Origin: Microbotryum violaceum | Lineage: Eukaryota | DNA length: 64,000 nt | Reading direction: 5' to 3' | Assembly (NCBI GenBank): GCA_001244265.2 | Contig: CDLV01000014.1 | Span: 1,240,001 to 1,304,000 of the forward strand | Shown: positions 29,821-30,318 of the stretch, piece after piece | How positions within the stretch are numbered: the first letter of the stretch is position 1 | Layout: each line of letters begins with the position of its first letter | Notes under the pieces: model-generated | Databases searched by the model: none | The model's input: the letters and a program-made list of their open reading frames with translations, nothing else | What the model was told of the DNA's origin: nothing | Made by a program: the position numbers and the translations under genes

Positions 29821-30318
29821 GTTGTCGTTGTTCGTTTGTTTGTTCCGCAAAGATGTCGCTGGCACACGTGGCAGCGTGCGTCTTTGACCGATGTGAAAAC
29901 AAAAGTGTAATACACCCCGTAGGAGTGTACACCAGAGAGCAACAACGAGAGTATCACAGGACCAAAGTATGTGGAATTAACACTGGATACTCGTGTTAGT
30001 TGCTACAATGACTATGACTTCTGATCCACCATAGGCTCACCTGGACACTCGTGTTAGTCGCTGAGGGGAGACTAAGAGTGTCCAGGCGCGTGCGCCCTTC
30101 TCATAAGGCCCAGGCGCATGGGCCTTACATTGACCTCTTGAGTGCGCGCCCGCGTGCCTCACAACTACGCCATAGCGCCAACAATGCTTGCAACCAGCAA
30201 ACCTTTAGGTGAACTCAACCCCAGCGGTGAACTTGGAGACTTCACTTTCACTTTCGAAGCCAAAATCGCCCCACGCCACACCTTCGGTTACGCCAACAAG
30301 TGATACACAGAGAGATCC

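Follow-up and report, generated by a model that had tools for sequence, protein, structure and literature searches.

Elements that are copied through RNA are expected to lose their introns. Penelope-like elements, among them Penelope of Drosophila virilis and Chlamys-3_cRei, carry an intron in a pseudo-long terminal repeat (pseudo-LTR), and the portion of the source consulted calls the significance of its retention unknown (PMC8557442). In foamy viruses, the major splice donor lies in R, ahead of the poly(A) site in both LTRs (PMC3694450). Canonical R-mediated transfer takes U3 from the 3' end of the RNA and R/U5 from its 5' end, and the first strand transfer renders both LTRs identical at birth (PMC6894440). 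Here we describe Gypsy2 (hereafter G2), a retrotransposon of Microbotryum violaceum in a 64,000-nucleotide (nt) stretch of contig CDLV01000014.1 (assembly GCA_001244265.2, positions 1,240,001 to 1,304,000 of the forward strand), which we call the window and whose numbering is used throughout. The long form of its LTR contains a 58-nt segment that, judging by its sequence, is probably a real spliceosomal intron and that ends in a copy of its own presumed first exon. We consider it likely that this intron would be spliced at the 5' end of the RNA, kept at the 3' end, and rebuilt by way of the copied exon.

G2 occupies 30129-24903 on the minus strand. Its 5' LTR (29906-30129) is 224 nt long and its 3' LTR (24903-25068) 166 nt, and the two align with a single 58-nt gap, just as the initial annotation of this locus had described when it reported an intron signature in the 5' LTR that is absent from the 3' LTR. 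The gap segment (29983-30040, minus strand) begins with GTGAGC, carries CTAAC 13 nt ahead of its end, and ends in CAG. It consists of a 36-nt unique spacer followed by a 22-nt repeat, r2 (29983-30004), which copies a repeat, r1 (30041-30062), directly upstream of the segment; the CTAAC branch motif and the 36-nt spacer had likewise been read correctly in that annotation. The two repeats agree at 20 of 22 letters in the 5' LTR of the window and at all 22 in copy L007, and in the window copy CTAAC is present in r1 as well as in r2. The repeat r1, which would be the first exon, stands directly after a pyrimidine tract where transcription would start, and the short 3' LTR retains a lone repeat copy at 24980-25001. 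A GT donor, a branch motif, a YAG acceptor and a length usual for fungi (58 nt) are together the features of a U2-type intron. The canonical intron proposed at first is probably a true one, as its signals, its layout and the concerted change of its repeats suggest.

Along the minus strand, Pfam finds protease, reverse transcriptase, RNase H, integrase zinc finger and a C-terminal chromodomain in that order, and the element has TG…CA LTRs, a polypurine tract and a 5-bp target-site duplication (TSD); it is of the Ty3/gypsy chromovirus type. Like Penelope-like elements as the consulted text describes them, G2 would unite in its terminal repeat a start site and a short spliceosomal intron of the 5' untranslated region that survives retrotransposition. 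Unlike them, it has retroviral-type integrase domains and true LTRs in place of a GIY-YIG endonuclease and pseudo-LTRs, and the 3' end of its probable intron is formed by a copy of the presumed first exon (PMC8557442). With foamy viruses it shares a donor ahead of the poly(A) site in both LTRs; there the donor is accessible at the 5' end and masked by RNA structure at the 3' end, a gating that is predicted for G2. It differs from them, where the donor suppresses polyadenylation, by a probable complete intron within the LTR and a repeat that would rebuild it, and the abstract describes neither (PMC3694450). The origins of U3 and of R/U5, and LTRs identical at birth, would be those of canonical transfer; in contrast to it, the R of the 5' end would be r1 plus 28 nt and that of the 3' end r2 plus 28 nt, at different places in the LTR (PMC6894440). 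An exon-copy repeat is described neither in the foamy virus abstract nor in the consulted text on Penelope-like elements. No report of a repeat-flanked intron in an LTR, or of priming by a poly(A) tail, was found in the open-access literature, a scope that leaves aside supplements, subscription papers and Repbase entries.

This layout is shared by other LTR families of the genome, of which an assembly of 33 Mb in 20 contigs was searched; the element types suggest a basidiomycete host. A scan for spaced direct repeats over 880 kb, biased toward the neighbourhoods of G2 and Copia A rather than genome-wide, yielded 38 clusters. Families were verified as LTRs by their termini plus a primer site, a polypurine tract or a target duplication, and nine pass: the gypsy-type G2, F7 and F10, and the copia-type (by primer site; domains were checked solely for elements in the window) Copia A, Copia B, F4, F5, F6 and F9. 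All nine have, in element sense, a pyrimidine tract, r1 ending in AG, a spacer beginning with GT, and r2 ending in AG, so the suggestion that the trait is not limited to Copia elements holds for three gypsy-type and six copia-type families. The chance of this layout is 4-15% per family, and the nine families are not all independent; read by eye, it occurs in 2 of 27 other spaced-repeat clusters. It is also present in F13, a family whose LTR status is unverified. In the three gypsy families the introns measure 57-60 nt, and 13-14 nt separate the branch motif from the acceptor; among 125 G2 LTR records the GTGAGC donor is found in 124 and a segment length of 58 in 119. Because controls with reversed patterns gave 0 matches and the layout recurs in every verified family, the segment is not due to chance.

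Several further observations concern this layout. The LTRs of Copia A in the window (40091-40467 and 44565-44843) have it in a 97-nt unit, and in those of Copia B (45832-46240, 49218-49726 and 59204-59700) the repeat is present once, twice or three times, alongside two GT-spacer units and a U3 stretch that would hide the donor. Two unclassified repeat families, F11 and F12 (L041:9008-9072, minus strand; L111:209-295), show the exon-copy intron layout, their LTR nature not being established, and F11 sits ahead of an open reading frame (ORF) of 80 amino acids. An upstream ATG in the spacer was considered and set aside, as it is found in subfamily a only and thus has no conserved role. A metagenome scan returned 4 distant loci out of 35 candidates, with no LTR pairs among them.

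The two repeats change in concert. In the G2 subfamilies a, b and c, r1 and r2 bear the same subfamily-specific letters (CTAACAC, CTGATAC, CTAACGTA); the change from CTAAC to CTGAT occurs in both repeats, and the branch consensus is retained. Concerted change of this kind is also seen in F6, F7, F9 and F10. Both repeats of Copia A are polymorphic for one non-CpG allele, and the r1 allele tracks a U3 marker in 28 of 28 elements and the r2 allele a U5 marker in 24 of 28, which locates the template switch between r1 and r2. In addition, the base preceding r2 shifts to the C that precedes r1 (3 of 33 in subfamily a, 10 of 18 in subfamily c, 11 of 28 Copia A elements, and fixed in subfamily b), as expected if DNA ends copied from slightly differing start sites overwrite r2.

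Genomic copies of RNA ends indicate where the transcript stops. CCTGTG followed by an A-run occurs at four genomic places. One of them (L194) continues from a polypurine tract through U3, r1, the segment and 28 nt into 19 A; a diverged copy (L195) has the same ending with 7 A; a third (L018/L030) has 9 A and then the reverse complement of U5; and the fourth (L017/L046) preserves the last 11 nt only. These copies place the poly(A) site at 29955/29954, 28-29 nt past the acceptor, at the end of a stretch (29954-29982, minus strand) whose final 13-14 nt complement the primer site. The segment is kept in all three of the copies that extend far enough upstream. No A-run copies of nine other families were found in the 880 kb, and inspection of the G2 site by eye did not reveal AUGHAH, the poly(A) motif of Cryptococcus. 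Six of the seven non-gypsy families tested have TGCAAT or TGAAAT in the spacer (shared by Copia A, F4, F5, F6, F9 and F13; e.g., 40332-40337). As a lead only, this could be a candidate poly(A) signal inside the intron, and these families might polyadenylate within r2.

A predicted hairpin offers a reason for the retention at the RNA 3' end. U3 positions 42-60 (30070-30088, minus strand) form a complement to the 3' part of r1 together with the donor (fold z=-2.66), and this pairing would be possible only where U3 is transcribed. The computed cost of opening the donor rises from 2.4-5.5 kcal/mol without U3 to 12-15 kcal/mol with it in G2a, G2b, G2c, F7 and F10, a cost matched by 0-2 of 60 shuffled U3 sequences. 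The hairpin letters differ among the three gypsy families, and hiding of the donor by U3 is predicted in all three of them and in two of seven other families (Copia B and F4). If transcription starts at r1, the start lies in the hairpin loop and the hairpin would exist only at the RNA 3' end. Gypsy1, an F10 element of the window (2865-7818), is the sole short/short element seen, and its hairpin arm is changed in both LTRs (duplex -25.8 versus -32.5; n=1); the arm is intact in all six other F10 copies read. The LTRs of Gypsy1 lie at 2865-3050 and 7650-7818, and a simple slippage deletion between 8-nt repeats has further removed 17 nt from the 3' LTR.

We propose the following cycle for a long LTR that reads U3, r1, intron (spacer plus r2), 28 nt, and U5. 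Transcription would begin at r1. At the RNA 5' end the donor would be free and the intron would be spliced, joining r1 to the 28-nt stretch. At the 3' end the transcribed U3 is predicted to fold over the donor, and the intron would be retained, as it is in the genomic copies of RNA ends, with polyadenylation 28-29 nt beyond the acceptor, where the A-runs begin. Minus-strand strong-stop DNA made from the spliced 5' end would match about 50 bases at r2 plus the 28 nt and 22 bases at r1, and would land on r2. The new LTRs would thereby regain the intron, and r1 would overwrite r2 in every cycle. Landing on r2 would explain why r1 bears a branch point and an AG for which it otherwise has no need. 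We regard this self-rebuilding intron as the likely reading of the sequence. The full RNA cycle, which to this sequence of events adds priming by the poly(A) tail on a T-run and a snap-back of the strong-stop DNA onto r2 that rebuilds the intron in both LTRs, would be undescribed; the Copia families would reach the same outcome with other letters, perhaps polyadenylating inside r2. We put that larger scheme forward only tentatively.

A further possibility, which the initial annotation put up for testing, was that the asymmetry of the window element is programmed, such that integration yields an intron-bearing 5' LTR and an intron-less 3' LTR. Searches for the junction patterns matched long and short forms 33 and 8 times in the subfamily of the window element (35 rows minus 2 fragments), 96 and 12 times in a sister subfamily (84% identity), and 20 and 5 times in a third. 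All 20 short copies of the first two subfamilies were followed, plus only part of the long ones, and long/long pairs are undercounted, as not every one was fetched. Among 36 pairs with matching TSDs in the first two subfamilies (8 + 28), the long/long state is found in 22, long/short in 7, short/long in 4 and triple/long in 3, and short/short pairs are absent. Five long/long pairs were dropped for mismatched TSDs (L154, L156, L163, L172 and L183), L170 was excluded as not being a pair, and the long/short pair L028/L031 lacked a TSD check. Although the window element and six other pairs do have the long/short form that programming would give, the 22 long/long and 4 short/long pairs rule it out, and we give it practically no probability: other copies are symmetric, the outcome that the annotation had itself named as refuting, long and short forms alike occur on either side, and the 7 to 4 split is not significant (binomial p=0.55). 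These counts show that the long form is the normal LTR of the family and that each LTR loses or gains a unit independently.

Direct repeats inside LTRs vary in copy number, which accounts for the short and triple LTRs, and hence for the asymmetry in the window; it explains neither the splice signals nor the donor hairpin. Triple forms cannot arise by splicing. With r1 and r2 equal, the product left by slippage from one repeat to the other is identical to that of intron removal. All three triple-form LTRs (L039:553-834, L166 and L167) are 5' LTRs, a number too small for testing. Template mixing at the second strand transfer is known from Ty1. The short 3' LTR in the window is a sporadic chance loss between repeats, either by slippage after integration or by template mixing at the second transfer, and this loss comes late, because both LTRs would be shortened under the canonical scheme if a unit were lost from the RNA or during the first strand transfer (PMC6894440). 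Asymmetric pairs (1.31%, n=6) are not of greater age than symmetric pairs (1.35%, n=15; p=0.91), and the short fraction shows no clear difference between older and younger subfamilies (8/41 versus 12/106, p=0.28); these age tests do not separate post-integration slippage from loss late in reverse transcription. What the evidence points to is an asymmetry that sets the 5' end of the RNA apart from its 3' end, rather than one DNA LTR from the other.

Two other explanations of the segment have to be weighed. The repeat might be a promoter feature without any splicing: transcription would start at or after r2, r1 and the spacer would be a U3 promoter repeat homogenised by slippage, unequal exchange and gene conversion, and the splice-like borders would be chance or relics. 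This accounts for r1 travelling with U3, for the retention of the segment at the RNA 3' end and for the short and triple forms; gene conversion among copies is evident, and the contigs described below show the unspliced form only. However, it does not predict that the repeat should end at AG|GT in nine of nine families, that three gypsy families should have a branch motif at 13-14 nt from the acceptor, that the hairpin should have the donor at its centre, that the pyrimidine tract should stand before r1 rather than r2, or that the base preceding r2 should drift toward that of r1, and we judge it unlikely. Slightly less probable, in our view, is that the donor serves as a landing site for the U1 small nuclear ribonucleoprotein, which, as in foamy viruses, would prevent polyadenylation in the 5' LTR, with genomic RNA mostly unspliced and r2 refreshed by occasional template jumps. 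The donor does lie upstream of the poly(A) site and is predicted to be hidden by structure at the 3' end only, as the foamy virus abstract describes (PMC3694450), yet this reading does not explain why there should be a branch point and an acceptor, why the segments of three gypsy families should have the length of a typical intron (57-60 nt), or why r2 should agree with r1 at 97-100%. A role in binding U1 can also be compatible with the self-rebuilding intron.

Other results weigh against the self-rebuilding intron itself. F8, a relative of F13, has GG at the donor, F6 is without a branch-like motif, and most columns of the spacer are nearly invariant, so that the conserved donor is not singled out. 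The hairpin effect is absent in five of the seven non-gypsy families tested and is weaker in the window copy (9.9 kcal/mol, reached by 4 of 60 shuffles), and no significant covariation was detected within G2 (82-392 of 500 shuffles reach the observed values). The Copia A rows share ancestry and were chosen as best matches to one copy, which overstates the p-values of the linkage, and tracing of alleles from mother to daughter copies in subfamily b failed through CpG recurrence and ectopic rearrangement among copies. A genomic copy of a spliced 5' end was not found in the 880 kb examined. Contigs of two presumed-RNA runs bridge the unspliced segment, and a splice joint appears in the contigs of none of four runs; this last test is nearly blind, because a spliced 5' end reads as r2 plus downstream sequence, and DNA runs also show no joint.

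The same copies bear on how reverse transcription begins. The primer-binding site (29882-29905, minus strand) consists of a C, a T-run (one T altered in the window copy) and then 14 nt that pair best with the LTR stretch just ahead of the poly(A) site, at -9.6 kcal/mol compared with -7.8 for the next region. The complement lies at LTR positions 162-176, and the T-run separates the LTR from the complementary letters. Gypsy1 has comparable pairing with different letters (-10.6). Two genomic copies and one contig of run X19 connect the RNA end via an A-run to the complement of U5. Because of these junctions and of the T-run in the primer site, we lean toward priming by the element's own poly(A) tail. 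A 5' primer of the Tf1 kind would produce the same junction of A-run and U5, but roughly ten additional bases of DNA would then remain outside the LTR, and the copy with 19 A would be unexplained.

Among described chromoviruses, Tf1 primes with its first 11 bases and Tcn2-5 are proposed to prime in a novel way, according to the consulted parts of three sources taken as a group (PMC2864245, PMC6317226, PMC7175516), and SM-Tcn1 has a thymine-rich stretch after the LTR, its priming being called unclear there (PMC2864245). As described in those sources, Tcn1-like and Tf1/sushi chromoviruses resemble G2 in being Ty3/gypsy elements with a chromodomain and no tRNA-type primer site (PMC2864245, PMC6317226, PMC7175516). 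Unlike in Tf1, the complement in G2 is found immediately ahead of the poly(A) site with a T-run preceding it, an arrangement that suggests priming from the 3' tail; within the Tcn1 clade as described, the resemblance of G2 to SM-Tcn1 is confined to the T-rich primer site.

A small LTR-like element with the terminal motifs of G2 adjoins two aberrant G2 ends (approximately L194:336-455 and L046:6685-6820), once as a fold-back, and is possibly a co-packaged non-autonomous partner. Head-to-head inverted LTR junctions (L018:1420-1910, L085:1320-1725 and L052:1247-1700) are probably aberrant products of reverse transcription. Matching hits lie at nearly the same coordinates near the starts (first 80 kb) of the two largest, repeat-rich contigs (L055, L056, L134 and L135), as for the shared ends of a chromosome pair.

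The remaining parts of the window element are as follows. Its target-site duplications, GTCAA (30130-30134) and GTCGA (24898-24902), agree at 4 of 5 letters, with the mismatch at a CpG. A gag-like ORF of 328 amino acids (28833-29819, minus strand) has no Pfam match, and its Atlas look-alikes bear Retrotrans_gag (score 0.95), which we take as a lead only. The pol region (25171-28832, minus strand) is interrupted by in-frame stop codons and, at 26069-26269 in the integrase region, by an insertion of about 200 nt that is private to this copy and that other G2 copies are without. The polypurine tract (25069-25082, minus strand) directly precedes the 3' LTR.

The asymmetry that was first flagged is ordinary. 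The mRNA of most genes tested in at least one basidiomycete depends on introns to accumulate, as far as the consulted text goes (PMC3744415). We hypothesize that the intron likely serves either to provide a cap-proximal intron for RNA in an intron-dependent host or to prevent early polyadenylation. If true, the success of LTR elements in intron-dependent hosts would find an explanation in a split R by which an intron is rebuilt, and LTR boundaries and LTR-pair ages in such hosts would have to be read differently. Priming by the poly(A) tail, if true, would be a testable answer to the priming question for T-rich, Tcn-like chromoviruses.
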